Source: Actinomycetota bacterium
GTDB taxonomy: Bacteria; Actinomycetota; JAICYB01
Direction of reading: 5' to 3'
NCBI GenBank assembly: GCA_040905525.1
Contig: JBBDRJ010000018.1
Coordinates: forward strand, 88,769-152,768
Length of the DNA stretch: 64,000 bases
In this document: piece by piece, positions 11,668 to 63,051 of the stretch
How positions within the stretch are numbered: position 1 is the first letter of the stretch
Layout: every line of letters starts with the position of its first letter
Translations under genes and position numbers: made by a program
Notes under the pieces: generated by a model
Seen by the model: only the letters and a program-made list of their open reading frames with translations
What the model was told of the DNA's origin: nothing
Databases searched by the model: none

Positions 11668-12585
11668 TTGACGGCGATCGAGATTGTCGGCCTTCGTAAA
11701 ACGTTTCGCCGCCGCTTAGGCCGTGCCAACCTCGCCGTCGACGGGCTCTATCTCCGGGTGCCGGCCGGCGGCGTCTACGGATTCCTCGGCCCCAACGGAT
11801 CGGGCAAGACCACGACCATCCGGTGTCTGCTCGGCCTGGTCCGTCCCGACGAAGGTGAGTGCCGGATGCTCGGCGCGAACACGCGCGGAGGGCTTGCCGA
11901 AGTAGTGGACCGAGTGGGTTCGATCGTCGAGACGCCGTCGTTCTTCGGCGGATTCTCGGGCCGGACGAATCTGGAACTGCTGGCCGGAGCGCGCGGGTTC
12001 TCGCGAGCTCGGATCGACGAAGCGCTCGAGCGCGTCGGGTTGGCCGATCGCGCCGGCGATCGCTTCCGCACCTACTCCCTGGGGATGAAGCAACGTCTCG
12101 GTTTGGCCGCCGTCCTTATCAAGGATCCGGAAGTGCTCGTGCTGGACGAACCGGCCAACGGGCTGGACCCAGCGGGCCTCAAGGAGGTCCGCGACCTGTT
12201 GCGATCGCTCGCCGACGACGGACGAACGGTTTTCCTGTCCAGCCATCTGCTCGGCGAGGTTCAGGCCATCTGCGATTCGGTGGCGATCCTCTCGCGCGGA
12301 CGCTGCATCGCGCAGGGACCGGTGGACGAGGTGCTGGCCGTCCGCGGAGGAAATGCGTTCGTCGTTCGAGCCGCCAAGATCAGAGAGGCGAAGCGCGCAC
12401 TCGACCAGGCCGGGTTGATGGCGACGTTCCGTGGGGACAAGAGCCTGCGCGTGATCGCGCAGTCGCAAGGCCCCGCCAGGATCACGCGAGCCCTAGCCGA
12501 GGCCGGCATCTACCTCACGGAGCTCCGGCCCGAGGAGATCAGCCTCGAAGCCGTCTTTCTAGAGCTCACGGGCGAGGAATCATGA
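11668..12585 (+). CDS. ABC transporter ATP-binding protein
   Basis: 305 aa; Walker A GPNGSGKTT, signature YSLGMKQRL, Walker B VLVLDEP; TTG start. Confidence 0.85.
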   Translation: MTAIEIVGLRKTFRRRLGRANLAVDGLYLRVPAGGVYGFLGPNGSGKTTTIRCLLGLVRPDEGECRMLGANTRGGLAEVVDRVGSIVETPSFFGGFSGRTNLELLAGARGFSRARIDEALERVGLADRAGDRFRTYSLGMKQRLGLAAVLIKDPEVLVLDEPANGLDPAGLKEVRDLLRSLADDGRTVFLSSHLLGEVQAICDSVAILSRGRCIAQGPVDEVLAVRGGNAFVVRAAKIREAKRALDQAGLMATFRGDKSLRVIAQSQGPARITRALAEAGIYLTELRPEEISLEAVFLELTGEES

Positions 12586-13547
12586 TGCGTTTGATCCTCA
12601 CCGAGATCCGCCGCGCGTCGCAGCGCCGGTTGTTCCGCGTCGCGCTTCTCGGTGCAGTGGCCGGCGTAGTGGCGGTGGCAATCTTCAACCTCGGCACATC
12701 GGACCCGAACGTCGAGTCGGCCCGCGCCGGCGCCCGGCAGCAGATCGCCGACTGCGAGCGATTCGCGGACGAGGAACGAAGTCGCATCGCCGAGAAAGGG
12801 CAAGACGCGTTAGGTGAGGCGTTCTTCGACTGCCCAGCGGTCTCCGAGATCGTCGAGTACTACGACAAGACGTTTCGTTACACCGATGCCGTCTCCGCGA
12901 TGGTCGAGGGCGGGGCCATCTTCGGTGCCGTGGTGGCCTTTTTCCTCGGCGCGTCCTTCGTCGGTGCGGAATGGGGATCGGGGAACATCGCGACTTTCCT
13001 GACGTGGGAGCCGCGGCGCGGTCGCGTCCTCTTGGCCAAGCTTGCGGCCATCGTTGTCGTGAGCGCAGCGGCCGTGGCCGTCCTGCTGTTGCTCGTAGTG
13101 CTCATCCACTTTCCGGTCGCGTTCTGGCGGGGAACGACGGAAGGTGCGAACGGTGCTTTCTGGGGATCGGTCGCCGAGTCGGCCGGTCGGGCGGCCGGAC
13201 TGGCCGGAGTGTTCGCAGCGGCTGGAGGCAGCATCGCGATGATCACGCGGGGCACAGCCGGGGCATTCGCGATCGGCGGCGCCTATGCCGGCGTGATCGA
13301 TCCGCTTCTCGCCTTCTGGCGCGACGGACTTCTACGTCCCTGGCTTCTCTTTCGCAACGTTCCGCAGTTCCTGGGCTATGCGGTCGAGCGGCCGATCACC
13401 AACGACTTCACCGTCGGGAGTGACGGGGGCGCGTCGTTCGAGTTCGTCGTCCTATCGGCCTGGCGTCCGACGTTCGTGCTGCTGTCCTACGTCGCTGTTC
13501 TCGTAGCCCTCGGCTACGCCGCGTTTCGCGTGCGCGACGTCACCTAA
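12582..13547 (+). CDS. ABC transporter permease (ABC-2 type)
   Basis: 3' part of ORF 11859..13547; ATG 12582 overlaps the ATPase stop (ATGA); hydrophobic multi-TM protein MMRLILTEIRR... Confidence 0.7.
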   Translation: MMRLILTEIRRASQRRLFRVALLGAVAGVVAVAIFNLGTSDPNVESARAGARQQIADCERFADEERSRIAEKGQDALGEAFFDCPAVSEIVEYYDKTFRYTDAVSAMVEGGAIFGAVVAFFLGASFVGAEWGSGNIATFLTWEPRRGRVLLAKLAAIVVVSAAAVAVLLLLVVLIHFPVAFWRGTTEGANGAFWGSVAESAGRAAGLAGVFAAAGGSIAMITRGTAGAFAIGGAYAGVIDPLLAFWRDGLLRPWLLFRNVPQFLGYAVERPITNDFTVGSDGGASFEFVVLSAWRPTFVLLSYVAVLVALGYAAFRVRDVT

Positions 13548-40284: not shown

Positions 40285-40686
40285 CTAAGCCTTGCGACGA
40301 GTTCGCGTACGTGTCGGCGCGGCCGGCTTACTAGACTCGGCGGCGATCTCGGCCCTCAGCCGGACCGATTGCTGCCAGTGCCACCAGAAGATGGCCGCCG
40401 CGGCGAGGGCGAATATGCCGTTCTCGGCGAGTGACGCGATGCCGCGATCGCGTTCGGCGTCGCCGGTGTCGAAGCCGCCGCTCCTGATCAAGGGGGCGTC
40501 TTCATCTACGAGCGTGGGAAATGCGAATCCGGAGTCACCGCCTTGCGCTGTTGTTCCGGGTGCGGCGATGCGGATGAGCGCGTAGACCGCGCTCGCCGAA
40601 GAGAACAGGACGACGACGACGGTCACCAGGCAGACGGCGTACAGGTAGATCTGGAAGGCTCGGCGGCCCGGTCGTTCGTCAGGCAT
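40285..40686 (-). CDS. Hypothetical small membrane protein
   Basis: 133 aa, two predicted TM segments; overlaps the upstream gene by 8 nt; no recognisable motif. Confidence 0.4.
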   Translation of the reverse strand: MPDERPGRRAFQIYLYAVCLVTVVVVLFSSASAVYALIRIAAPGTTAQGGDSGFAFPTLVDEDAPLIRSGGFDTGDAERDRGIASLAENGIFALAAAAIFWWHWQQSVRLRAEIAAESSKPAAPTRTRTRRKA

Positions 40687-41269
40687 CGCGTTTCTCCTCT
40701 TCCAAGAGCCGTTGTCCGGCTCGCGCGTGGAACATCATGATTCCCAAAGCAACGATCAAGATCGTGCCGCTCTCCGCTGCCTGCCTTCCGGCACCGCTTC
40801 GAGCACCCGATGCCATGCAGGCGGGTGTGCGCACGTCGCCGAACTCGGGTCGCACCGGCTGAGGCGGCCTGACGGGCGAGATCTGTCCCGCGACAGGCGG
40901 TTCACTCGCAGCGCCCAGCCGCGCTGAGCTCTCCAGCTGTCTGCGGATCCCGGGCGGCAGTTGGTCGAGGAATTCCCCGGGGGGTGGGACATCGATGGTC
41001 TCTTCGTCCGTGAAGGCCGGCTCGGTACACGAGTAACCGAGGGGTTGATCGGCGATGGCCGCGGCGATGGACGACGTCAGGCCCCTCAGAGACGCGAACG
41101 CGGCAAGGAACGAAACGAACAGCACTATTCCGAGGTAAGCCGTGTAGGGATTTCGCAGGGGCGCTTCGTCGCGCCGGCCCAGCACCAGCCATACACCGAG
41201 GACGACGAAGGCCGCTATCCCGAGGACGAGAAGACCAGCGAGCAGGGGGAGCGCTCCGCCGAGCAGCAT
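40679..41269 (-). CDS. Hypothetical membrane protein
   Basis: 196 aa with 2-3 hydrophobic segments and a Pro-rich linker; divergent from the ECF sigma gene. Confidence 0.4.
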   Translation of the reverse strand: MLLGGALPLLAGLLVLGIAAFVVLGVWLVLGRRDEAPLRNPYTAYLGIVLFVSFLAAFASLRGLTSSIAAAIADQPLGYSCTEPAFTDEETIDVPPPGEFLDQLPPGIRRQLESSARLGAASEPPVAGQISPVRPPQPVRPEFGDVRTPACMASGARSGAGRQAAESGTILIVALGIMMFHARAGQRLLEEEKRDA

Positions 41270-41381
41270 CGCTGGAAATCATACGCGTGAGGCCGAAATA
41301 CACAACCCGACCCCGCGGGTTCCATTGGAAGTGCCGCTTCCGCGAGGTGCAGGTCGTGTCGGTAGGGTTGGAGCAACGGCC

Positions 41382-41942
41382 ATGGAGAGCGGCAACGAGG
41401 TAGCCAAAAGCGACGAAGAACAGGTTCGGCGCTTCGAGGAGTTGATCGTTCCTGAGATGCCGTTCCTTGCACGGATCGCGCGAGCGATGTCCCACTCGCA
41501 GGCCGAGGCCGACGACCTCGCCCAGGAGACCTTGGTCAAGGCCTTTCGGGCCATCGAGCGGTTCGACGGACGCTATCCCCGCGCCTGGCTCACGCGGATC
41601 GCTCGCAACACGGCGATCAATCGAGACCAGAGAAACCGCGAGTTCCTGCTCGCCGACGAGGGCGTCGTGGAGCCGGAGCCCGCACCCGACGAGGTCACCG
41701 ACCCCGAGGACATCGTCGTCGGACAACAGATGGACGAGACACTCCGGGCCGCTCTTGACGACCTGCCGCCGGACTTTCGGATCGTCGTCCAGCTCGTGGA
41801 CGTCGAGGACATGACCTACCAGGAAGCTGCCGACGTGCTGGACATTCCCATCGGGACGGTAATGAGCCGGCTGCATCGGGCGCGAACGCGCCTGCGTCGC
41901 GCGCTTAGCGGCACATCCCTGGACCGTGGGGCGGCGCTATGA
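41382..41942 (+). CDS. ECF (sigma-70 family) RNA polymerase sigma factor, SigR/SigH-like
   Basis: ORF 41325..41942; start at ATG 41382 after GGAG; region 2 (ETLVKAFRAIERFDGRYPRAWLTRIARNTAIN) and region 4 (MTYQEAADVLDIPIGTVMSRLHRAR); paired with a ZAS anti-sigma gene. Confidence 0.8.
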   Translation: MESGNEVAKSDEEQVRRFEELIVPEMPFLARIARAMSHSQAEADDLAQETLVKAFRAIERFDGRYPRAWLTRIARNTAINRDQRNREFLLADEGVVEPEPAPDEVTDPEDIVVGQQMDETLRAALDDLPPDFRIVVQLVDVEDMTYQEAADVLDIPIGTVMSRLHRARTRLRRALSGTSLDRGAAL

Positions 41943-42226
41943 GCTTGATCGCCTACGTCCCGGGGACGCACGCCTGGCGAAAACGCCGGCATGACGAGCT
42001 GTGCCGTGACACCTACGAGCACATCCAGGAGATCGTCGACGGCGAGATGACCCCGAGCAAAGCCAAGCAACTCAAGGCCCACCTCGACGCTTGTGAGGGA
42101 TGCGAGGTCGAGGCCGAGGTGATCCGCTCGCTTAAGGAAGCGATCGCGCGAGTTGGTCAGCAGACCGACCAGCAGTGCGTGCGGCGTCTGGACGACCTGG
42201 CCCGCCGGCTCTGCTCCGGCGAATAG
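41939..42226 (+). CDS. Zinc-binding anti-sigma factor (ZAS family, RsrA/RshA-like)
   Basis: 95 aa; ATGA overlap with the sigma gene; ZAS motif C...H-x3-C-x2-C (ELCRDTYEHI...HLDACEGC). Confidence 0.7.
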   Translation: MSLIAYVPGTHAWRKRRHDELCRDTYEHIQEIVDGEMTPSKAKQLKAHLDACEGCEVEAEVIRSLKEAIARVGQQTDQQCVRRLDDLARRLCSGE

Positions 42227-42250
42227 CTCGCGACCGCCAACGCTTCGCTT

Positions 42251-42898
42251 GTGGTAGCCGCGGGCGCGGCGGCCTGCCCCGTAGGATTCCTCATCGTGGG
42301 AGATCTGGGGTTGCTGATGGCTTTGCGCGTCCAGGGGATCGCCTCGCCGGTGCGCGCATCTGTAGCGTCGGGCGACGAGCTTTCCGCTGTAACGGCTCGA
42401 CTGACCGAACTCGTTTCGGAGGAGGTCGTGACCGAGCGCTCCGGACGGCACGTGGGCTTCACGCTCACGAACAAAGGCGCCGAGCTCCTCGGCCAGCTCC
42501 TGTCCGAGGAGGGACTACGCGCAAACGAGCGGCTTCAACATTGCTACAACAGGTTCCTCATGGTGAATGAGTCCGTTCTCCAGGCCTGCTCCGATTGGCA
42601 GGTTCGCCGCGATAGTGGCATGAACATCCCAAACGACCACTCCGATCCGTCCTACGACCATGCAGTGATCGACGCTCTCGTCGAGTTGCACGGCCGGACC
42701 AAACGCTTCTTGAAGCAGATGGCGGCGTGCTCCGCACGCTTCCTGCTGTACGAGGCGCGGTTGGACGACTGCGTCGAGCGCCTGCTTTGCGGCGATCGAA
42801 CGGCGTTCAATGCGCTGTTGGTTGAGAGCTACCACACGGTGTGGTTCGAGCTTCACCAGGACCTGATGCTGACGCTCGGCTTGGAACGGGAGGGGTAA
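42251..42898 (+). CDS. Hypothetical protein (possible winged-helix N-terminus, Cys-containing C-terminal domain)
   Basis: 215 aa ORF (start may be the internal Met near 42317); no recognisable catalytic motif; immediately downstream of the sigma/anti-sigma pair. Confidence 0.4.
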   Translation: MVAAGAAACPVGFLIVGDLGLLMALRVQGIASPVRASVASGDELSAVTARLTELVSEEVVTERSGRHVGFTLTNKGAELLGQLLSEEGLRANERLQHCYNRFLMVNESVLQACSDWQVRRDSGMNIPNDHSDPSYDHAVIDALVELHGRTKRFLKQMAACSARFLLYEARLDDCVERLLCGDRTAFNALLVESYHTVWFELHQDLMLTLGLEREG

Positions 42899-43503
42899 TG
42901 GAACTCGTCCTCGTCCGACACGCTTTGCCGGTCCGCATAATCAACGCGGAGGGTGCCGCCGATCCTCCACTGACGGAGCTCGGACGTCGGCAAGCCCAGG
43001 CCGTCGCCACGTGGTTGGGGGCCGAGCGGTTCGATGCCTTGTACGCGAGCCCGTTGGTGCGCGCGCGAGAGACGGCCGAACCGCTCTCCTCATCCCTCGG
43101 TCTCGATGTTCAGATCGAGGACGGCATCGCGGAGTACGACCGCCGATCGGAGACCTATATCCCGATCGAAGAGGTGAAGAGCAGCGACGACCCTGAGATC
43201 CAGGCGCACTGGCGTGCGCTGGCTGAGGATCGGCTCGAGGATCTGATCGAAGACGCGCACACCTTCAGGCCGCGCGTGGTCGACGCCGTCACCCGCATCA
43301 TCGCCAAGCATGCCGGCGAGCGTGTGCTCGCCGTGTGTCACGGCGGCGTTATCAACGTGGCGCTTGCGGAGGTCATCGGACTACAGCGAAGCTTGTGGTT
43401 CGAACCGGCGTACGCATCCATCCATCGTGTGGTTGCCTCGCGCGCCGGCATCCGTAGCATTGCGAGCATCAACGAAACAGGTCACTTGCGCGGTCTCGAC
43501 TAA
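42898..43503 (+). CDS. Histidine phosphatase family protein (phosphoglycerate mutase-like)
   Basis: ORF 42841..43503; start at ATG 42898 (MELVLVRHALP = RHG-type motif), overlapping the upstream stop. Confidence 0.75.
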   Translation: MELVLVRHALPVRIINAEGAADPPLTELGRRQAQAVATWLGAERFDALYASPLVRARETAEPLSSSLGLDVQIEDGIAEYDRRSETYIPIEEVKSSDDPEIQAHWRALAEDRLEDLIEDAHTFRPRVVDAVTRIIAKHAGERVLAVCHGGVINVALAEVIGLQRSLWFEPAYASIHRVVASRAGIRSIASINETGHLRGLD

Positions 43504-45113
43504 GCCCGTTCGAGCACCTTCACGAATCCGGCGGAGCCGTCCACCTCGACGGTGTCGCCGTCGTGCAGCACCGAACACGCTCCCGTCGCCGCAACCACGG
43601 CCGGGATCCCGAGCTCACGTGCGACGATGACGGCGTGCGACAACTCGCCGCCGACTTCGACGACGACGGCGGCAGCCGGGATGAACATCGGCGTCCACCC
43701 AGGGTCGGTTATCGGAGCCACGAGGACCTCGCCGGGCGATGGAGGCGTGCTGCGGTATGGATCGAGAACGACACGTACTCGTCCTTTCGCCGTCCCCGGG
43801 CTCCCGGCGACGCCGCGAAGCTCGTCGACCGGTCCGGCGTGGGCGGCTACGCCCACATGCAACCAGTCCTCGATCGGCGGAACCTCGCCGAACACGACGA
43901 GCGGTGCCGCCAGCTTGGAGAGCTCTTCGAAGCGTTTCGTTCTTGACGCCAGGTCGTGCGGCAGCTCGCCGTCGAGTGCTGCGGTGTAGAGCTCGGCAAA
44001 GGTCAGCATGAAGACCTGTCCGGGGTCGGTCAGGACCTTCCTATCGAGGAGCCTTTTGGTCAGCTCGTGCGCGTCCAGCCTGGCTTCGTTCAGCAGGACG
44101 ATGCAGTTCGTCTTCGTTCGTTCTCGCCCTGGGATGTAGAACTTCGCCGCTTCGAGCCAGAAGCCGAGCTCGGGCCAATCCTTGCCGAGGGCTCCTTCGA
44201 CCTCAACGAGCGCCGAGGTGCGGATGTCCTCGATCGGACGCTTGGGCTCTGCCCCCTTGGCCTTGTCGATCAGCGATCCAACGACGTCCGGAACGAGTTC
44301 CCACGACGGCGTTGCGAGCTCCCATTCGTTCGCGCCACGGAAGCCGTGATCGATGATGAAGTCGTTGAAGCGGATGTCGAAGTCGTGGCCCTCGAGCCTG
44401 GCCAGTTCGGCGATCTCCTTGGCCGGGCCGGCCGAGTCGACGTCCCCCAGGCCGCTGACGATGCGTCGCGCCAGGTCGTCTCCCCGTTCACCCAGAACCT
44501 GGCGCAGGCCTTGCTGAAGGCCGCCGAAAGCCACGCTGGAAAGACTGGACGTGAGGATGTGGTCGTAGAACAACGTTTCGACGCGATCGGCCATGTTCTC
44601 CATGTTGGTGAGTAAAGCGATGTCGGTTTGTCCCGACCGGCGGTCGCGCGAGATCCGGCGGAACGCAGCAGCCATCGCACGGTCGGCTTCCACGGCAGCC
44701 ATGGGCGGGTTCTTGAGCAACGAGGAGACCCCGAGCTCACAACGCTTCCGTCGCTCTTCGTAGCCGGGCTCAGCCGGTGGTTCGTGGGACGGAAGCTTCA
44801 CGCCGATGGCGAAGAATTGGTGGTCGATCTCCTCCGGTGATGTTCCGGGGGACAGATCCGCGGCGCGCCTGATGAGCGACAGGTTCAGGTATGCGTACGA
44901 GCCGAAGAACCCGAGGATGCGGAACTCGTGGTCGGACGGGTCGATGACGGGGAGGTCGCGGGTCCACAGGCGTCGCCAGCCGCGCTCTAGACGGGGGGTG
45001 AACAGCGTCCGTGTTAGCGGAGTGACGGCCGTCGGGAAGACCTCGCCGATGTTGCCCCTCGTGTACAGCGGGAACTGCTGGTCGGGCTCGGTGTCGAAAG
45101 GCCAGAGCGCCAT
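43500..45113 (-). CDS. PEP-utilising enzyme mobile (swivel) domain protein
   Basis: 537 aa; C-terminal phospho-histidine swivel domain GSPGTAKGRVRVV...VLVAPITDPGWTPMF...GGELSHAVIVARELGIPAVV; no recognisable ATP-grasp N-domain. Confidence 0.65.
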   Translation of the reverse strand: MALWPFDTEPDQQFPLYTRGNIGEVFPTAVTPLTRTLFTPRLERGWRRLWTRDLPVIDPSDHEFRILGFFGSYAYLNLSLIRRAADLSPGTSPEEIDHQFFAIGVKLPSHEPPAEPGYEERRKRCELGVSSLLKNPPMAAVEADRAMAAAFRRISRDRRSGQTDIALLTNMENMADRVETLFYDHILTSSLSSVAFGGLQQGLRQVLGERGDDLARRIVSGLGDVDSAGPAKEIAELARLEGHDFDIRFNDFIIDHGFRGANEWELATPSWELVPDVVGSLIDKAKGAEPKRPIEDIRTSALVEVEGALGKDWPELGFWLEAAKFYIPGRERTKTNCIVLLNEARLDAHELTKRLLDRKVLTDPGQVFMLTFAELYTAALDGELPHDLASRTKRFEELSKLAAPLVVFGEVPPIEDWLHVGVAAHAGPVDELRGVAGSPGTAKGRVRVVLDPYRSTPPSPGEVLVAPITDPGWTPMFIPAAAVVVEVGGELSHAVIVARELGIPAVVAATGACSVLHDGDTVEVDGSAGFVKVLERA

Positions 45114-45245: not shown

Positions 45246-46706
45246 ATGGCCATCGACGCACCGGATCGCGCAGCAACCGTCGGACCCACATTGCCCGAAT
45301 GGACCCGCCCGGCGACGCCGGTCGGTCCGTTACTCGCCGCCGCCATCGTCATCGCCGCCGTCGCCTTCGACATCGCCGCGCGTTCGCAGGCCGTGGGTGT
45401 CGGTGCATCGATACTGATCGCGACCTTCGCCGGTGTATTGTTCGCAACCGGTCACCTGGAGAATGCGCAGAGCCGCGGACTTGCGTTGGTGGCCGTTGGC
45501 TTCGGCGCTCTGCTCTCGATCCGAACGAGCCCTTGGCTCGTACCCTTCGACGTCCTGGCCTCGATCGGGTGTCTGGTTGCTGCGGCTTCTCTCGCGCAAG
45601 GCGGGAGCCTCTTGGACATATCCGGACCGAAGGCGGTGCTCCGCGGTGTGCACGCCGGGGTCAACGGCCTGTTCGGGCTCGGCTACGTCACGCGCGGGCG
45701 TGGGACGAAGTTTGCGCCCGCGATGCGCGGTTTGGCGATCGCCATTCCCCTGGCCGTCGTTGTCGGGATCCTGCTCGCCTCGGGTGATGCCGTGTTCGCG
45801 TCCGCCTTCAAGTTCGACGCCGTCGATCTCGTCAGTCACATGCTCCTGCTCTTTTTCGGGCTGTGGCTGGCGGCGGGGCTGGCCCGAGTATGCGCAACGC
45901 CGAAGATAGACGAACCCGACGCGACGATGCCGCGGCTGGGCAAGGTGGAGTGGGCGATCGTTCTCGGCGCGCTCAATCTGGTGTATCTCGGCTTTGCCGT
46001 AGCACGCATCGTGGCCGTGTCCGAAGGTGGCGCTCGCGTTCTGAAGACGGCCGGCCTGACCTACGCTGAGTACGCGCGCTCAGGCTTCTTCGAGCTGCTG
46101 GCCGCCGCCGCCATCACTCTCGTCGCCCTGATCGTCCTGCGGGCTACTGCCGATGTATCGGAACCGAGATCGCGCGGGGTCTTCTCGGTCCTTGCGTGCT
46201 CGGTCATCGCGCTCAATCTGCTGGTCGTCGCTTCGGCGTTCCAGCGGCTTGCGCTCTACGAGCAGGCGTTCGGTCTTTCGATGCTCCGCTTTTACAGCAT
46301 GGTCTTCTGTATCTGGCTCGCCATCGCGCTCGTGGCGCTGGCTCTGTGGATCGCCGGCGTCGCAGGCCGGCGCCCCTGGTTCTGGTCGATAGCTGCTGGT
46401 ACCGCGCTCGCCTTGCTCCTTGCGCTGAACATCGCGAATCCGGAAGCGATCGTCGTTCGCCACAACGCGGGTGCGGATACCGTTGAGGGCTTCGACGCCG
46501 AGTACGCGAACGAGCTATCCGAGGACGCCGTTCCGGCCCTTAGCGATGCAGCTAAGGAAATGGACGAAGGAGCGAGGGGAGAGGTGGAGCGTCGACTTTG
46601 CCCGGCCCGTCCCCCTTCTGCCACCGGATGGAAGAGCTTCAATCTCAGCAGAGAGAACGCCGCTACGGCTCGCATCTTGTTTTGCTCTCGGTCCTCCGGG
46701 CGTTGA
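45246..46706 (+). CDS. Polytopic integral membrane protein, function unknown
   Basis: 486 aa, 10 or more hydrophobic segments; no catalytic motif recognised. Confidence 0.5.
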   Translation: MAIDAPDRAATVGPTLPEWTRPATPVGPLLAAAIVIAAVAFDIAARSQAVGVGASILIATFAGVLFATGHLENAQSRGLALVAVGFGALLSIRTSPWLVPFDVLASIGCLVAAASLAQGGSLLDISGPKAVLRGVHAGVNGLFGLGYVTRGRGTKFAPAMRGLAIAIPLAVVVGILLASGDAVFASAFKFDAVDLVSHMLLLFFGLWLAAGLARVCATPKIDEPDATMPRLGKVEWAIVLGALNLVYLGFAVARIVAVSEGGARVLKTAGLTYAEYARSGFFELLAAAAITLVALIVLRATADVSEPRSRGVFSVLACSVIALNLLVVASAFQRLALYEQAFGLSMLRFYSMVFCIWLAIALVALALWIAGVAGRRPWFWSIAAGTALALLLALNIANPEAIVVRHNAGADTVEGFDAEYANELSEDAVPALSDAAKEMDEGARGEVERRLCPARPPSATGWKSFNLSRENAATARILFCSRSSGR

Positions 46707-47200
46707 ACTTGCGGGACGCCCTCGACACCGACCTTCCTTTTCTCATCTCCATGTGGTTCGAAGCCGCTTTCTGGGATCCAGCCACTCGGCGCCCCACGAT
46801 CGAGCAGGCGCTGGCCGTGCCCGAGCTCGCCATCTACATCGACGGCTGGGGGAGGACGGGTGACGGCGCCGTGATCGCAACCGATGACGAACCGGTTGGA
46901 GCGGCCTGGTATCGCCTCTTCGCGGCCGAAAAGCCCGGCTACGGATTCGTCGACGAGCGCACGCCCGAGCTCGGGATCGGAGTAGTGGCCCACAGACGCC
47001 GCGAGGGCATCGGCGCCGCCCTTCTCGACGCGCTGTGCGAGCGCGCGACGTCGGACGGCTTCGAGCAGATCAGCCTCGCGGTGTCCGGCGGAAACAACGC
47101 GATACATCTCTACGAAAGGGCTGGATTCGTCGTCGTCTCGCCCGAGGGGACTGGCTGGAAGATGGTCAAGGCTCTAAGGGGTTCGTCCGGGGACGCATGA
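46703..47200 (+). CDS. GNAT family N-acetyltransferase
   Basis: ORF 46598..47200; TTG 46703 overlaps the upstream stop; acetyl-CoA binding motif RRREGIGAALLDAL. Confidence 0.65.
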   Translation: MNLRDALDTDLPFLISMWFEAAFWDPATRRPTIEQALAVPELAIYIDGWGRTGDGAVIATDDEPVGAAWYRLFAAEKPGYGFVDERTPELGIGVVAHRRREGIGAALLDALCERATSDGFEQISLAVSGGNNAIHLYERAGFVVVSPEGTGWKMVKALRGSSGDA

Positions 47201-49077
47201 TAGTTTCGCATTTCGAACGCTACGCCACAGCTGGAGGGGGGACAGGTTTGACGAGAGACATCACCGCCGAGGCGAAAGAGATCGACGCCGCCGTTGACGG
47301 CAAGACGGTATGCAACATCTTCCAGGACGCCGCTAAGAAGTTCGCCGACAGCGAAGCGCTCAGGTGGAAGGACGGAGACGAATGGAAATCCATGACCTGG
47401 GCCGAGTACGGCGAAGGCGTCCGTGATTTCGCCAAAGGTCTCATAGCGCTTGGTCTCAAGTCGGGCGAGTTCGTCAACCTGATCGGTTCCAACATCCCCG
47501 AGTACGTGATCTCCGACCTCGGTGTGCTTCATGCAGGCGGCGTTCCCGTGTCGCTGTACAACACGCTCGCGCCCGAGCAGATCGAGTACATCATCAACCA
47601 CTGCGAGGCGCAGTACGTGATCTGCGAGAACCGCGATTACCTCGAACGACTCTTGAAGGTGCAAAACGAGATCCCGAACATCCGCAAGGTCATCTTGTGG
47701 CGCGACGCCGACGAGTTCGCCGACAACGACTGGATCGTTTCCTACGAAGACATCGTCTCCGAGGGCCGCAAGCAGGACGACACGGAGTACGAGAAACGCT
47801 GGAAAGCGATCGACCCCGAGGACCTGGTCACTCTTATCTACACGTCGGGAACCACCGGGCCCCCCAAGGGCGTCATGGTTTCGCACCGCAACGTGAATTG
47901 GACGGTGAATTCCTTCCTGAGGGTAATGCCGCTGCGCGCGGGCACGAAGCAGATCTCCTATCTGCCCATGGCCCACATCGCGGAGCGCATGATCGGCCAC
48001 TACGGCCCGTTGCAGATCGGGTCTGTGATCTCCTTCTGCCCCGACGCGCGTCAGGTCGCCGCTTACCTCCGCGACGTAAAGCCGACGTGGTTCTTCGCCG
48101 TGCCGCGCATCTGGGAGAAGCTCTACCAAGGCATCCAGAACGCCATCGAGGGTTCGCCCGACGATCAGAAGCAGGCGGCCCACGATGCCATCGCGGTTCG
48201 CAAGCAGATCGTCGCGTTGCAGCATGCCGGTAAGGATGTGCCGGAGGATCTGACCAAAAAGGGCGAGGAGGCCGAGCCCGTCGTCGCGTTCATCCGAGCT
48301 CTGGTTGGTCTCGACGAGGTCGACGTTGCCGGTACGGGCGCCGCACCGATCGCACCCGAGATCATCGAGTTCTTCTGGGCCCTCGGCGTCGAGCTGTACG
48401 AGGTGTACGGGCAGTCGGAGGACACGGGGCCGACTTCGTGGAACCGTCCCGGCATGATCAAGATCGGCACGGTCGGTCCGTCCATCCCCGGCGTCGAGGT
48501 GAAGCTGGCCGACGACGGCGAGCTGCTCGTGCGCGGCGGAAACGTCACGACCGGCTACTACAAGGAGCCCGAGCTCACAGCTGAGACATTCGACGAGGAG
48601 GGCTGGCTGCACTCCGGTGACGTGGCTGAGATCGACGAACGGGGCTTCATCAAGATCGTCGATCGCAAGAAGGAGATCCTCATCACCGCTGGGGGCAAGA
48701 ACATCGCGCCCTCGAACGTCGAGAACATGCTCAAGCAGCATCCTCTGATCGGTCAGGCGTGCATGATCGCGGACAAGAGACCGTATGCGACCGCACTGAT
48801 CTCGTTGGATCCCGATGATGCGGCCGCGTGGGCAAAGAAGCAGGGCAAGCCTACGGATCTGCCCTCGCTCTCACAAGACCCGGATGTCGTCGCCGACATA
48901 CAGGCCCACATCGACCAGATGAACACACGGCTTCACAACCAGGAGCAGATCAAGAAGTTCACGATCCTTCCCATGGACTGGTCGGTTGACTCCGGTGAGG
49001 TCACGCCGACGCTGAAGATGAAGCGCAAAGTTGTGAACCAGAAGTTCGAGGATGAGGTCGAGAGGATGTACGCCTAA
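47197..49077 (+). CDS. Long-chain fatty-acid-CoA ligase (AMP-binding)
   Basis: ORF 47035..49077; start ATG 47197 (ATGA overlap with the GNAT stop); YTSGTTGPPKGVMVSH, GWLHSGD, C-terminal lid. Confidence 0.85.
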   Translation: MIVSHFERYATAGGGTGLTRDITAEAKEIDAAVDGKTVCNIFQDAAKKFADSEALRWKDGDEWKSMTWAEYGEGVRDFAKGLIALGLKSGEFVNLIGSNIPEYVISDLGVLHAGGVPVSLYNTLAPEQIEYIINHCEAQYVICENRDYLERLLKVQNEIPNIRKVILWRDADEFADNDWIVSYEDIVSEGRKQDDTEYEKRWKAIDPEDLVTLIYTSGTTGPPKGVMVSHRNVNWTVNSFLRVMPLRAGTKQISYLPMAHIAERMIGHYGPLQIGSVISFCPDARQVAAYLRDVKPTWFFAVPRIWEKLYQGIQNAIEGSPDDQKQAAHDAIAVRKQIVALQHAGKDVPEDLTKKGEEAEPVVAFIRALVGLDEVDVAGTGAAPIAPEIIEFFWALGVELYEVYGQSEDTGPTSWNRPGMIKIGTVGPSIPGVEVKLADDGELLVRGGNVTTGYYKEPELTAETFDEEGWLHSGDVAEIDERGFIKIVDRKKEILITAGGKNIAPSNVENMLKQHPLIGQACMIADKRPYATALISLDPDDAAAWAKKQGKPTDLPSLSQDPDVVADIQAHIDQMNTRLHNQEQIKKFTILPMDWSVDSGEVTPTLKMKRKVVNQKFEDEVERMYA

Positions 49078-51370: not shown

Positions 51371-52258
51371 ATGGATGTCCGCATCACGCATCCCGACAAG
51401 GTCCTGTTTCCACGGGACGGCTATACCAAGGCCGACGTCGTCGGCTACTACGTTGAGGTCTCCGACGCGATGCTGCCGTTCATGCGTAACCATCCGCTGG
51501 CCATGCTCCGGTTCAACGACGGCATCGACCGCGAAAGGTTCTTCCACAAGCGCACGCCGAAGTACTTTCCGTCTTACATCGACCGCGTGCAGATAACGAT
51601 CGGCGACGAGAAGGTGAACTACTCGGTCTGCAACAACCTCGAGGCGCTGGCCTACATCGCAAACCACAACTCCATCGAGCTCCATCTACTGACCGTCCGT
51701 GCCGACGACCTGGAGCACCCCGACAGGATGGTCTTCGACCTGGACCCGTCTATCGATGACTTCGAGATGGTGCGCGAAGCGACGCGCTGGTTGCACGAGC
51801 TTCTCGATGAGGTGGGCCTGCCCGCTTTCCTCATGACGAGCGGATCGCGCGGGCTGCACACCTGGGTCCCCCTGGACCGCAAGTCCGACACCGAGGAGGT
51901 CCACTCCTTCGCCGGCGAAGTCGCGAGAGTTCTCGTCGATCGCCATCCGGAAGTCCTCACCACCGAGTTCGCCAAGGCCGATCGCGGATCGAGGATCTAT
52001 TTCGACGTCGCGCGCAACGCGCCGGGGCAGCACGCGGTCGCTCCGTACTCCCTGCGGGCGAAAGACGGCGCTCCGGTCGCCACTCCGATCACGTGGGACG
52101 AGCTGGACGATCCCAAGCTCACCCCGCAGCGCTGGACTATGAAGACGGTGACCGGGCGCATCGGCGACGATCCCTGGGCGGGCATGGCCAAGAAGGCTCG
52201 ATCACTCAGCCGCGCTCGCAAAGCGCTCGACCGCTTGGCACGGCGGGGCTCTGTCTGA
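51371..52258 (+). CDS. Non-homologous end-joining DNA polymerase domain (LigD Pol/PrimPol-like, standalone)
   Basis: 295 aa; primase-polymerase motifs (MVFDLDP, SGSRGLHTWVPL); no fused ligase or nuclease domain. Confidence 0.75.
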   Translation: MDVRITHPDKVLFPRDGYTKADVVGYYVEVSDAMLPFMRNHPLAMLRFNDGIDRERFFHKRTPKYFPSYIDRVQITIGDEKVNYSVCNNLEALAYIANHNSIELHLLTVRADDLEHPDRMVFDLDPSIDDFEMVREATRWLHELLDEVGLPAFLMTSGSRGLHTWVPLDRKSDTEEVHSFAGEVARVLVDRHPEVLTTEFAKADRGSRIYFDVARNAPGQHAVAPYSLRAKDGAPVATPITWDELDDPKLTPQRWTMKTVTGRIGDDPWAGMAKKARSLSRARKALDRLARRGSV

Positions 52259-53180: not shown

Positions 53181-54140
53181 CTAGAGCTCGATCCCCAGCA
53201 TCGAGCCCAACGCCCGGCCGATCCCGAACGAGATCGCGGCCACGCCAGCGCCGAGTGCCAGCATGACGCCGAAGCGACGGCGGAACGACACGCCCTGCAT
53301 CACTGACGAGTAGTACGAGAAGGCCGCGATGATCAACACTGCGGCCGCCCACGAGATGAACAGCGCGGTGTGACGGTCGGACAGGAAGAAGAACGGCGCC
53401 ACGAGTCCTAAGACGACGAAGATGTAGGTCACGCCGGTGTAGGCGGCGGCCTTACTCGGTCTCAGGGCCGTCGCCTCGCCGATGTCGACGGACAGGAAGT
53501 TGGACGCCGCCATCGACATCGACGCAGCGATCCCGACTACCAGGCTGGCGAAGCCGATCAGCTTCGGGTCGGAGATCGACGAAACCAGGCCCGTCAGGCC
53601 CCCCGTGAGCTCGACCAGTGCGTCGTTCAGTCCAAGCACGGCGGCGCCGAGATAGGCGCGCCGTTCGTCCTTCACTCCCTGCTCGAGCGCCTGCTCGTGC
53701 TCCTCCTCCTCGCGAAGCATCCGCGCGACACCCTCGCGCTGATCGGGTTCGAGCGAGTCTTCCTCGAGCAACTGCCGGTAGGTCGCGATGGCTTTGTCCT
53801 CGCCGCGCTCGAGCCAGCGGATCGTGAAAGCCGGGCCCAGCAGTCTGCTCGACGCGACGAGCAGCAGATGTTTGAGGCGTGATGCACGCAAGCGTTCTTC
53901 GGGGATCTGGCAGACGTTCAGCCAGAACCTTACGTGTCCGTCCTCCTGTTCGGCGAGCTGGTTGAGCATGGAGCGGCTCTTGGGATCGGGTGCTCGCTCC
54001 GCGAGGGCCCGATAGATGCGGCACGCGAAAAGTTCCTCGGTTGCCTGCTGCCGAGCCACGTGCTGCAGATCGCTCGCCACGATTGCAAGTCTCTCATGCG
54101 CGCCGAATGTGCCACATATGTGATAGACGCTTGTACACAT
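53181..54140 (-). CDS. Ferritin-like domain / VIT1-CCC1 family iron transporter fusion (MbfA-like)
   Basis: ORF 53181..54191 (start uncertain, set to internal Met); N-terminal ferritin-like helices with E...E..H motifs, C-terminal VIT1-like TM domain. Confidence 0.65.
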   Translation of the reverse strand: MCTSVYHICGTFGAHERLAIVASDLQHVARQQATEELFACRIYRALAERAPDPKSRSMLNQLAEQEDGHVRFWLNVCQIPEERLRASRLKHLLLVASSRLLGPAFTIRWLERGEDKAIATYRQLLEEDSLEPDQREGVARMLREEEEHEQALEQGVKDERRAYLGAAVLGLNDALVELTGGLTGLVSSISDPKLIGFASLVVGIAASMSMAASNFLSVDIGEATALRPSKAAAYTGVTYIFVVLGLVAPFFFLSDRHTALFISWAAAVLIIAAFSYYSSVMQGVSFRRRFGVMLALGAGVAAISFGIGRALGSMLGIEL

Positions 54141-54993
54141 GAACACCGATCTACTTCTGAAGGACGCCGAGGCGACGCTGGTCGCCGTCAACGAACGGTT
54201 CGGCTGGCAAGGCGACGAGGACGATCAGGCGTGGGACATCCTCACCCACGTTTTGCGACGCCAACCCGATCCCGACGAGGACCTGCCACTCGACGTCGCT
54301 TATCGATTCGACGAGCTCGTGAAGAGGCGGGCGACGGGGGAGCCGCTCGCGTTCATCCTCGGCTGGGTCGAGTTCCTCGACTTCAAGATGGCGATCGAAC
54401 CCGGGGCGTTCATCCCTCGGCTGACCAGCGAGTTCCTCGCCAAGCAGGCGATCCGCCGGCTGCGAAAAAGAGCGAAGCCGATCCACATCGACCTGGCCTG
54501 CGGGATCGGACCCGTGGCCATCGGCTCGGCTCGGGCCGTTCCCAAGGCGAAGGTTTTCGGGGTCGACATCTCCAAGAAGGCGGTCAGGCAGGCTCAGGCC
54601 AATGCGACGAAGCTCGGTGCCGGCAACGCGACGTTCCTAAAGGGCGACATGTTCTCGCCGCTGCCCGAAGAGCTGCGCGGCAAGGTCGACGTCATATCCA
54701 TCCACCCTCCTTACGTACCCAAGGCTGAGGTGGCCGACCTGCCGGAAGAGATCAAGGAGTACGAGCCCGCGCACACCCTCACCGACGCATCGTTGGACGG
54801 ACTGGGGCTGACGCGCCGGGTGATCTCGGAGGGCCGGGAGTGGCTGGGGCCCAAGGGCTGGGTGCTCATCGAGATCGTCCCGACGGAGTCCATCCTGGTT
54901 CGCAGGATGTTCCGCGAGCACGGCTACTTGGAGGTGCGCAGCACACATGGTGAGCTCAAGCTGACGCGGGTCATCTGCGGACGGATGCCATAG
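54139..54993 (+). CDS. Class I SAM-dependent methyltransferase, HemK/PrmC-like
   Basis: 284 aa; SAM motif DLACGIGPVAI, HPPY (NPPY-like) motif IHPPYVP. Confidence 0.6.
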   Translation: MNTDLLLKDAEATLVAVNERFGWQGDEDDQAWDILTHVLRRQPDPDEDLPLDVAYRFDELVKRRATGEPLAFILGWVEFLDFKMAIEPGAFIPRLTSEFLAKQAIRRLRKRAKPIHIDLACGIGPVAIGSARAVPKAKVFGVDISKKAVRQAQANATKLGAGNATFLKGDMFSPLPEELRGKVDVISIHPPYVPKAEVADLPEEIKEYEPAHTLTDASLDGLGLTRRVISEGREWLGPKGWVLIEIVPTESILVRRMFREHGYLEVRSTHGELKLTRVICGRMP

Positions 54994-62490: not shown

Positions 62491-63051
62491 CTAGGGGACC
62501 GGTCTGGTCTCACCGCGACCCGTGATACGCAACAGCTCGCCGGGCTCGAGGTCAAGCAGATCGTCCAGCAGTCGATCCAGCGTGGCCTGGTCGATCGCGC
62601 CGATGTAGGAGCCGGCCACGTTTCCTCGAGGGTCAACGAACACCGTTTCGGGTACGCCGGTTACGCCGTAGCGTTTGGCGACGATGCCGCGCGCGTCACG
62701 CACGCTCCCGTACGGCACTTCGAACTCCTCGATGAACTCGAGAGCACTCTGACGCCCGTCGAGGATTGCTATGCCGAGAAATTCGATGTCCTTGCGGTGC
62801 TCACGCGCACCGCGCGCGAGCACGGCGGCTTCTGCCCGGCACGGCTCGCACCAGGACGCCCAGAAGTTCAGCACCGCCGGTTTACCGCGCAGATCGGCGA
62901 GCGACAACCGTTCGTCAGGATCTTCCAGGGTCGGCAGCGAGAACGAGGGGCCCGGACTTCCGAGCTCGGCCTGGGGCCGGGCCCGGAACAGTCCGATGCC
63001 GGCGATGACGAAGAGGAACACCACGGGGGTGAGCCACAGCAGCCTTCGCAT
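62491..63051 (-). CDS. TlpA/ResA-like thiol:disulfide oxidoreductase (thioredoxin fold)
   Basis: 186 aa; N-terminal TM anchor, active site WASWCEPC. Confidence 0.8.
   Translation of the reverse strand: MRRLLWLTPVVFLFVIAGIGLFRARPQAELGSPGPSFSLPTLEDPDERLSLADLRGKPAVLNFWASWCEPCRAEAAVLARGAREHRKDIEFLGIAILDGRQSALEFIEEFEVPYGSVRDARGIVAKRYGVTGVPETVFVDPRGNVAGSYIGAIDQATLDRLLDDLLDLEPGELLRITGRGETRPVP

Follow-up and report, generated by a model that had tools for sequence, protein, structure and literature searches.

In the SigR-RsrA system of Streptomyces coelicolor and the SigH-RshA system of Mycobacterium tuberculosis, a gene for an extracytoplasmic function (ECF) sigma factor overlaps a gene for a small cytoplasmic zinc anti-sigma (ZAS) factor. 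SigR promoters carry the elements GGAAT and GTTG (PMC5005934), the thioredoxin system is a classic SigR-controlled target (PMC3961337), and C11, H37, C41 and C44 of RsrA are its zinc and disulfide residues, with E39, E40, L45 and E46 serving as redox determinants that flank the two cysteines (PMC3177212). Phosphohistidine signalling has been described for SixA, which belongs to His_Phos_1 and removes the phosphate from a phosphohistidine of NPr at a step downstream of the phosphoenolpyruvate (PEP)-utilizer enzyme PtsP (PMC6282199, PMC7948535), and for VadK (Rv1127c), a derivative of pyruvate phosphate dikinase (PPDK) without the PEP/pyruvate domain, which autophosphorylates on His422, controls methylcitrate-cycle flux and virulence, and is essential for the latter in M. 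tuberculosis (PMC13400623, EMBO Rep 2026). The locus considered here, at positions 41382-43503 of a 64-kb stretch of an Actinomycetota genome (64,000 nucleotides of contig JBBDRJ010000018.1, hereafter the window), carries four genes on the + strand in a region of high GC content (61-67%): an ECF sigma gene, a ZAS anti-sigma gene, a gene for an uncharacterised 200-aa protein, and a gene for a His_Phos_1 phosphatase. The arrangement is explained best, with somewhat better than an even chance, as two functionally separate units lying side by side, a redox sigma switch and a phospho-signalling pair that would operate through the relay proposed below. The interest lies in the third gene rather than in the sigma/anti-sigma part, which is routine. 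The third gene belongs to a family of more than 2000 clusters at 50% identity that has no Pfam or NCBIfam model and that comparative data tie to VadK-type kinases.

The third gene was listed in the original prediction as a 215-aa open reading frame (ORF) at 42251-42898. The gene is real and conserved, but its start was corrected to the GTG at 42296 (42296..42898, +; 200 aa; NCBI protein P0001), given that homologues have a common N-terminal D-L-x-x-L-M-A-L segment and that a -10 box is conserved ahead of this codon. In the window and in all 13 loci of the closest clade (clade A, 49-64% identical to the window protein), an in-frame GTG or ATG lies 21-27 nt upstream of a conserved Met, and a TANNNT box is found 6-9 nt before that GTG/ATG start in 14/14 loci, against a background frequency of 0.4% of positions. 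The box of the window is the -10-like hexamer TAGGAT (42282..42287, +), 8 nt before the GTG, which predicts a leaderless transcript for the 200-aa protein and phosphatase genes; no SigR-type promoter precedes the 200-aa protein gene. A repeat, ATGCGATGC, overlaps the -10 box and start codon in three loci (L003 5960-5980, L083 5985-6004 and L095 868-887) and could be an operator for autoregulation.

The suspicion that this ORF might be a frame shadow was dispelled by 123 close homologues, 2007 clusters at 50% identity (E ≤ 1e-3) and the mean pLDDT of 92.5 of its AlphaFold2 model; members of the family occur in at least 588 species genomes. The model contains the winged helix that had been suspected at the N-terminus (approximately residues 8-72). 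Behind it comes a four-helix bundle, in which a beta hairpin separates the first helix from the rest. The profile and structure searches proposed for this product delivered a fold, through the model, but no known family: Pfam and NCBIfam returned no model for the protein and only an ORC2 WHD match of 17 bits, below cutoff, a PDB-sequence search gave nothing meaningful (matches at E ~1), and Foldseek gave no significant full-length match. Conservation was measured over 609 family members from all clades, and the residues conserved in at least 97% of them (Y84, F87, N91, W101, Q102, N113, H115, D117, D121, R148, Y152, G166, S178, Y179, H180, W183, E185, H187 and R198) all lie in the four-helix bundle, except one glycine. 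Conservation is lowest in the winged helix. The family motifs W101-Q102, N113-x-H115-x-D117, R148...Y152 and S-Y-H-T-V-W-F-E-L-H are all present in the window protein, and three histidines of the bundle, H115, H180 and H187, are invariant.

Several cysteines are indeed present in the window protein, as had been remarked, but none is conserved across the family, and a thiol-sensor role was rejected for this reason. Annotators have labelled family members 'hypothetical', 'MarR' and even 'pyruvate phosphate dikinase'. The MarR family label, given to some members by NCBI/JGI, was also rejected: there is no MarR-type Pfam or NCBIfam match, superposition on MarR covers only the winged helix-turn-helix (wHTH), which is N-terminal rather than embedded in MarR dimerisation helices, and the conserved part is a separate four-helix bundle that is absent from MarR proteins. 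Assignment to the HPt domain was set aside as well, as the protein has neither a match to the Hpt model nor a demonstrated phospho-accepting histidine on its four-helix bundle.

The fourth gene (42898..43503, +) encodes the predicted histidine phosphatase, a branch 1 protein of 201 aa, with a His_Phos_1 score of 131.8 bits over 185/194 profile positions, the N-terminal R7-H8 dyad, a later R, and a distal H in C-H-G-G. It reaches no NCBIfam functional equivalog, and its N-terminal match to SixA is weak (E 5e-7 over 75 residues). The predicted 1-nt overlap is also present, the TAA stop of the 200-aa protein gene and the phosphatase ATG at 42898 sharing one base (TAATG). Across clade A, the phosphatase lies within a few bases of the 200-aa protein gene in 9 of the 11 loci whose sequence reaches that point, and 150-800 nt away in L088 and L093. 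The two genes are a conserved, translationally coupled pair.

The genomic surroundings of the family were surveyed in a census of 164 non-redundant loci, using targeted phmmer searches with known queries. In clade A, the sigma and ZAS genes, in some loci with a thioredoxin gene, lie upstream of the 200-aa protein gene, and His_Phos_1 and then AMP-binding genes lie downstream. A link of the family to phosphatases or PEP-utilizer kinases recurs in distant lineages without a sigma gene nearby. Six genomes of Solirubrobacterales have the order AMP-binding, His_Phos_1, one or two further genes, family member, PPDK_N+PEP-utilizers kinase, and Blastococcus jejuensis has the order HAD phosphatase, family member, PPDK-like kinase. 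Clade C and other members are 29-37% identical to the window protein; in five soil contigs (L150, L155, L157, L160 and L164; 29-33% identity) His_Phos_1 is directly upstream of the family gene, and in two others (L161 and L162) a kinase gene takes that place. The same partners occur as single-ORF fusions in metagenomes, namely His_Phos_1 (P0199, encoded between AMP-binding and kinase genes), Y_phosphatase3 (P0200) and PPDK_N+PEP-utilizers (P0203), each followed by the family domain, as are PEP-utilizers+PEP-utilizers_C in fusion P0257. On Rhodococcus opacus B4 plasmid pROB02 (L174, 1955-5162), the C-terminal part of a 793-aa 'PEP-utilizing enzyme' is the bundle, and an overlapping tyrosine phosphatase gene comes next; on Rhodococcus plasmid pLW3 (L175, 2288-5847), an AMP-binding protein has the bundle at its end, and its gene overlaps that of a VadK-sized PPDK downstream. 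Both plasmids are finished, and in both fusions the winged helix is missing and the bundle alone is kept, which marks the bundle as the functional core. AMP-binding genes flank or fuse to the family in many lineages. The conserved genomic partners of the family are thus acyl-CoA ligases, phosphatases from three superfamilies, and PPDK-derived phosphohistidine kinases of the VadK or the Rph_4th-swivel type.

Some further observations concern the spread and company of the family. The pROB02 locus also has APH/ecdysteroid-kinase-like phosphotransferases after the fusion. A DUF7064 (PF23212/PF23213) gene is directly upstream of a family member in L084 (4998-6585), and in mycobacteria (L171, 11929-14457) such a gene is directly upstream of an Rph_4th+PEP-utilizers gene; DUF7064 may be a further recurrent partner. 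Family members are found on large plasmids or chromids of the Proteobacteria Novosphingobium, Diaphorobacter, Paraburkholderia and Methylibium, which suggests horizontal spread, and VadK has also been reported in Burkholderia ambifaria (PMC13400623).

The connection with VadK comes through the mycobacteria. On M. branderi plasmid pJCM12687, the gene for a 200-aa family member lies 14 nt beyond that for a 522-aa PPDK_N+PEP-utilizers kinase, and on M. avium plasmid pP7a and slow-growing mycobacterial chromosomes, such a kinase gene, here encoding 542 aa, overlaps the gene for a 201-aa family member. The window protein is a full-length homologue of these kinase-following proteins, with the same motifs and length, exhibiting 32% identity over 200 aa with the M. 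avium pP7a protein (E 2e-28) and 30% identity over the full length with the M. branderi protein (E 2e-23). Three peptides encoded by the rv1127c primers of the VadK study (PMC13400623), AVFASWNSP, EPFGEWL and SHAAVVSRE, the last around the catalytic His, occur in the M. avium kinase. That study did not identify the phosphotransfer partner of VadK. The gene rv1126c lies just downstream of rv1127c, and the Methods of the study state that 'operonic partner Rv1126c' improves VadK solubility and that 2 M NaCl is needed for its removal (PMC13400623). On account of its position after rv1127c and of the mycobacterial homologues, Rv1126c, which binds VadK tightly, probably belongs to the family of the 200-aa protein. 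The neighbourhoods and fusions name a candidate VadK partner (Rv1126c and its relatives), candidate erasers of the phosphate, and three invariant histidines.

A PEP-utilizer swivel-domain gene adjoins the pair in the window too. The convergent gene at 43500..45113 (-) encodes a 537-aa protein (Pfam PEP-utilizers, 79 bits) that joins an Rph-like domain in the middle to a phosphohistidine swivel domain at the C-terminus and lacks an ATP-grasp domain; its orthologue in L081 matches Rph_4th and PEP-utilizers. Among the clade-A loci, only the window and L002 have the Rph_4th-swivel gene, and L002 is identical to L081/L082. The 537-aa protein shares 26-28% identity along its whole length (E 1e-36) with 'PEP-utilizing enzymes' that are encoded beside the VadK-like/partner pairs on the M. 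branderi and M. avium plasmids, and Rph_4th+PEP-utilizers genes lie near the mycobacterial pairs, in M. branderi convergently, as in the window. The stop codons of the phosphatase and PEP-utilizer genes overlap (CTAA; window 43500-43503, L081 7174-7177), an arrangement conserved in L081/L002 that leaves no room for terminators. The window neighbourhood is rich in acyl-CoA metabolism genes, in keeping with the propionate/methylcitrate role of VadK, and includes an AMP-binding gene of the acyl-CoA ligase type (47248..49077, +; Pfam AMP-binding and AMP-binding_C_3) that is 75% identical to the AMP-binding gene after the pair in L081. Unlike the mycobacterial loci, the window has no VadK-type ATP-grasp kinase in its 64 kb, its neighbouring Rph_4th-swivel protein is encoded on the opposite strand, and the 200-aa protein gene is coupled to a His_Phos_1 phosphatase and lies behind a redox sigma module. 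A second copy of the 200-aa protein family was searched for in the window and was not found.

The sigma/anti-sigma module bears out most of what had been read from the sequence. The ECF sigma gene (41382..41942, +; 186 aa) and the ZAS anti-sigma gene (41939..42226, +; 95 aa) overlap at ATGA, the sigma stop TGA occupying 41940-41942 and the anti-sigma ATG 41939-41941, and the H-x3-C-x2-C motif is present, with Pfam in agreement. The sigma protein has Sigma70_r2 (65 bits) and r4_2 (57 bits) but no r3, and thus consists of sigma2 and sigma4 domains only; its best relative of solved structure is M. tuberculosis SigH (E 1e-26 to 2e-31, full length), followed by SigE. The anti-sigma protein matches zf-HC2 (35 bits), has no hydrophobic segment, and finds its best PDB match in S. 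coelicolor RsrA (5FRF). Its motif is H48-LDA-C52-EG-C55, preceded 25 residues before H48 by C22, so that the spacing C-x25-H-x3-C-x2-C is identical to that of RsrA, and C22, H48, C52 and C55 align to C11, H37, C41 and C44. The label SigR/RsrA-type, however, holds only in part. Both proteins score well below the curated thresholds, the sigma factor reaching 105.8 bits against a cutoff of 251.55 for TIGR02947 (SigH_actino) and the anti-sigma factor 39 bits against a cutoff of 62.5 for TIGR03988 (antisig_RsrA), and the RsrA redox-determinant residues mostly differ, the E39 position alone being conservatively kept (D). A functional analogy is nevertheless supported: the module is likely to work like SigR-RsrA in this lineage, because the promoter GGAAT-N18-GTT found in the relatives of the window is the SigR promoter and the thioredoxin system that adjoins it there is the classic SigR target.

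Five independent loci of these relatives (L001, L002, L003, L083 and L090) have the order sortase, sigma, ZAS, thioredoxin, 200-aa protein gene, His_Phos_1, with a 60-aa membrane ORF between the ZAS and thioredoxin genes in three of them. Each contains exactly one GGAAT-N18-GTT, located directly before the thioredoxin gene at a distance of approximately 35-60 nt (L001 2873-2898, L002 5557-5582, L003 5590-5615, L083 5537-5562 and L090 5293-5318), whereas the background is 16 sites in 1.38 Mb of other loci. In L003 and L083 the site overlaps the anti-sigma stop codon (GGAATAG). L001, L002 and L090 additionally have GGAA(C/G)-N18-GTT upstream of sigma, and L089, which is without a thioredoxin gene, has its single exact GGAAT-N18-GTT upstream of sigma. 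L089 has also lost the thioredoxin gene, either independently or ancestrally.

The window departs from this pattern. The search for SigR promoters that had been suggested returned no exact GGAAT-N18-GTT in the whole 64 kb, against 0.94 expected, and the relaxed form GGAAY-N17-19-GTT gave 6 sites against 7 expected, all apparently within ORFs. No thioredoxin gene follows the anti-sigma gene, and the only thioredoxin-like match in the window is weak (62620-62937, -). At the position equivalent to the thioredoxin promoter of the relatives lies cGAAT-N18-cTT (42220..42245, +), in which the two most conserved positions are substituted (GGAAT to cGAAT and GTT to cTT). By comparison with the relatives, the thioredoxin gene has been lost from this genome and its promoter reduced by decay to a remnant, documenting a sigma factor that lost its flagship target gene and left a decaying promoter behind. 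Upstream of sigma, GAAAT-N19-GTT (41295..41321, +) differs from GGAAT-N18-GTT by one mismatch in the -35 element and a spacer longer by one base. It corresponds in position to the GGAA(C/T/G)-N18-GTT before sigma in L001, L002, L089 and L090, and has the context CGGGTT..CCATTG in common with L001; this near match to the SigR/SigH consensus is a candidate autoregulatory promoter of the sigma gene. A GGAAC-N19-GTT at 11973-11999, with a CGCGGGTT -10 context resembling the sigma promoter, is probably a chance match, since it lies within the long ORFs 11668-12585 and 11859-13547.

The two proposed units can be outlined as follows. In the first (41295-42226), a SigH/SigR-like sigma factor held by a zinc anti-sigma factor would form a switch that responds to thiol oxidation. 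The switch probably acts on its own promoter and, in all sequenced relatives that keep the thioredoxin gene, would also drive that gene from a perfect GGAAT-N18-GTT promoter. The second (42282-43503) would be the translationally coupled gene pair, transcribed without a leader from a housekeeping-type -10 box of its own. Its four-helix bundle is envisaged to dock to a swivel-histidine kinase of the VadK or Rph_4th-swivel type and to accept a phosphoryl group on an invariant histidine, or to present the acceptor; the co-translated His_Phos_1 enzyme would remove that phosphate, as SixA does on NPr, and the winged helix, or a fused enzyme, would relay the state to DNA or to a partner protein, probably controlling acyl-CoA metabolism. 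The 200-aa protein is thus most likely a phosphohistidine relay component that is reset by the phosphatase. The nitrogen phosphotransferase system resembles this arrangement in its participants, a PEP-utilizer phosphohistidine enzyme, a small partner, and a branch 1 histidine phosphatase encoded with the partner. It differs in that the partner in the window combines a wHTH with a four-helix bundle instead of an HPr fold, and in that the window phosphatase is approximately 200 aa long and only weakly SixA-like. A broader version of this proposal is more tentative and falls clearly short of an even chance: the bundle could supply the missing phospho-acceptor, or the carrier, in a non-canonical histidine phosphorelay spread across Actinomycetota that in this lineage has come to lie beside a thiol-stress sigma switch. 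Swivel kinases of the VadK and Rph_4th types would then charge H180, H187 or H115, phosphatases of the His_Phos_1, Y_phosphatase3 and HAD groups would erase the phosphate, and output through the winged helix or fused acyl-CoA enzymes would set acyl-CoA/propionate flux.

Several observations weigh against the division into a redox switch and a phosphorelay pair. With regard to the switch, the window sequence H-L-D-A-C-E-G-C-E-V differs from H-F-E-E-C-S-P-C-L-E of RsrA, and the known determinants do not predict redox sensitivity (PMC3177212). With regard to the separation of the units, no + strand terminator-like site occurs between 41942 and 42296, and read-through from the sigma operon into the second unit is possible. 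With regard to the relay, the largest clade of the family, clade B of the Acidimicrobiia (approximately 120 of the 164 loci), has the order SURF1, family member, dapA, rnj, ftsK, without a sigma, kinase or phosphatase gene nearby, and no PPDK_N (ATP-grasp) domain is encoded anywhere in the 64-kb window. The invariant His/Asp/Glu set fits a metal or ligand site equally well, and the top Foldseek matches, which are not significant, are metal- or ligand-binding wHTH regulators. The assignment of Rv1126c draws on its position, on its presumed length of 201 aa, and on mycobacterial homologues rather than on its own sequence; homologues of the M. avium protein among the matches listed are at least 66% identical, and no M. 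tuberculosis protein is among the matches listed. No phosphorylation has been reported in the literature for any family member, and the VadK study used Rv1126c only as a solubility aid (PMC13400623).

The original prediction had taken all four genes as one co-transcribed module, with the 200-aa protein and phosphatase as members or accessory components of the thiol-stress regulon. Such a single SigR-dependent operon is considered unlikely. It would account for the common strand, the short gaps and the lack of a + strand terminator-like site between the genes in the window, for the order sigma, ZAS, (thioredoxin), 200-aa protein gene, phosphatase kept in approximately 8 loci at 49-64% protein identity, for the DinB/mycothiol-S-transferase-like gene a few genes downstream in relatives, and for the disturbed redox balance of M. 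tuberculosis upon loss of VadK (PMC13400623). However, in 14/14 loci the 200-aa protein gene is preceded by a conserved -10 box that belongs to it alone and starts without a leader, and GGAAT-N18-GTT is found neither before it nor anywhere else in the window. A hairpin separates the thioredoxin gene from the 200-aa protein gene in L083 (15 bp, z about -4.6) and, in weaker form, in L090, although L001, L002 and L003 have none. When the gene order was checked in related genomes, as had been suggested, the four-gene order proved to be confined to clade A, with a sigma gene within 3 kb in only 7/164 family loci; the one sigma hit outside clade A (L109) is on the opposite strand, and nowhere outside that clade does the family have a co-directional ECF sigma neighbour. 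Within clade A, the entire block from a cation-efflux gene to the AMP-binding gene is syntenic, and adjacency of the sigma module and the pair therefore carries little weight. The family also lacks a conserved cysteine. Co-transcription of all four genes is consequently doubtful, membership of the last two in the regulon is not supported, and the 200-aa protein and phosphatase genes are probably not part of a SigR-driven operon.

A similarly low probability attaches to a one-component transcription factor of the GntR-FCD/MntR-like kind, in which the bundle would bind a metal and/or an acyl or carboxylate ligand and the protein would regulate acyl-CoA genes, the phosphatase being metabolic and protein phosphorylation playing no part. 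The architecture of a wHTH joined to an all-helical effector domain would suit such a regulator, as would the identity of the top, non-significant Foldseek matches (metal-binding FCD regulators and MntR), the recurrent neighbourhood of acyl-CoA ligases, dehydrogenases, hydratases and carboxylases, and the fact that many His_Phos_1 members are small-molecule phosphatases and mutases. It is harder to reconcile with the wHTH being the least conserved part of the protein, with the bundle occurring without a wHTH in fusions to kinases, an AMP-binding enzyme and phosphatases, and with the salt resistance of the Rv1126c-VadK complex (PMC13400623). The family is, moreover, linked to phosphatases of three unrelated superfamilies as well as to phosphohistidine swivel kinases, which suggests a shared phospho-protein logic rather than a single metabolite. 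That the 200-aa protein gene and the phosphatase are neighbours through lineage-specific synteny alone, without any functional link, is very improbable. Most family members, those of the Acidimicrobiia, do lack a phosphatase nearby, and the gap of 150-800 nt in L088 and L093 would also be in keeping with mere synteny, but the overlapping or abutting stop and start codons are kept in nine clade-A loci, distant lineages have the adjacency independently and with the order reversed, His_Phos_1 occurs fused to the family domain in a single ORF, and Rhodococcus has the equivalent with a tyrosine phosphatase. The reading as a redox sigma switch beside a separate phosphorelay pair is preferred over all three.

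The flanks of the four-gene region show a number of differences from the relatives. A tandem pair of DUF5671-like membrane protein genes (40285-41269, -) lies between the sortase and sigma genes in the window only; in all relatives the sortase gene directly precedes sigma, without DUF5671 genes. At 41321-41304 the minus strand has a hairpin with a T-tract, and the spacer of the sigma promoter falls within the overlap. Downstream, a DUF4153 membrane gene and a GNAT acetyltransferase gene (45246-47200) are inserted between the PEP-utilizer and AMP-binding genes. Further along the window are a stand-alone LigD primase-polymerase gene (51371-52258) and a gene (53181-54191, -) in which a rubrerythrin/COQ7-like domain is fused to a VIT1 iron transporter domain.

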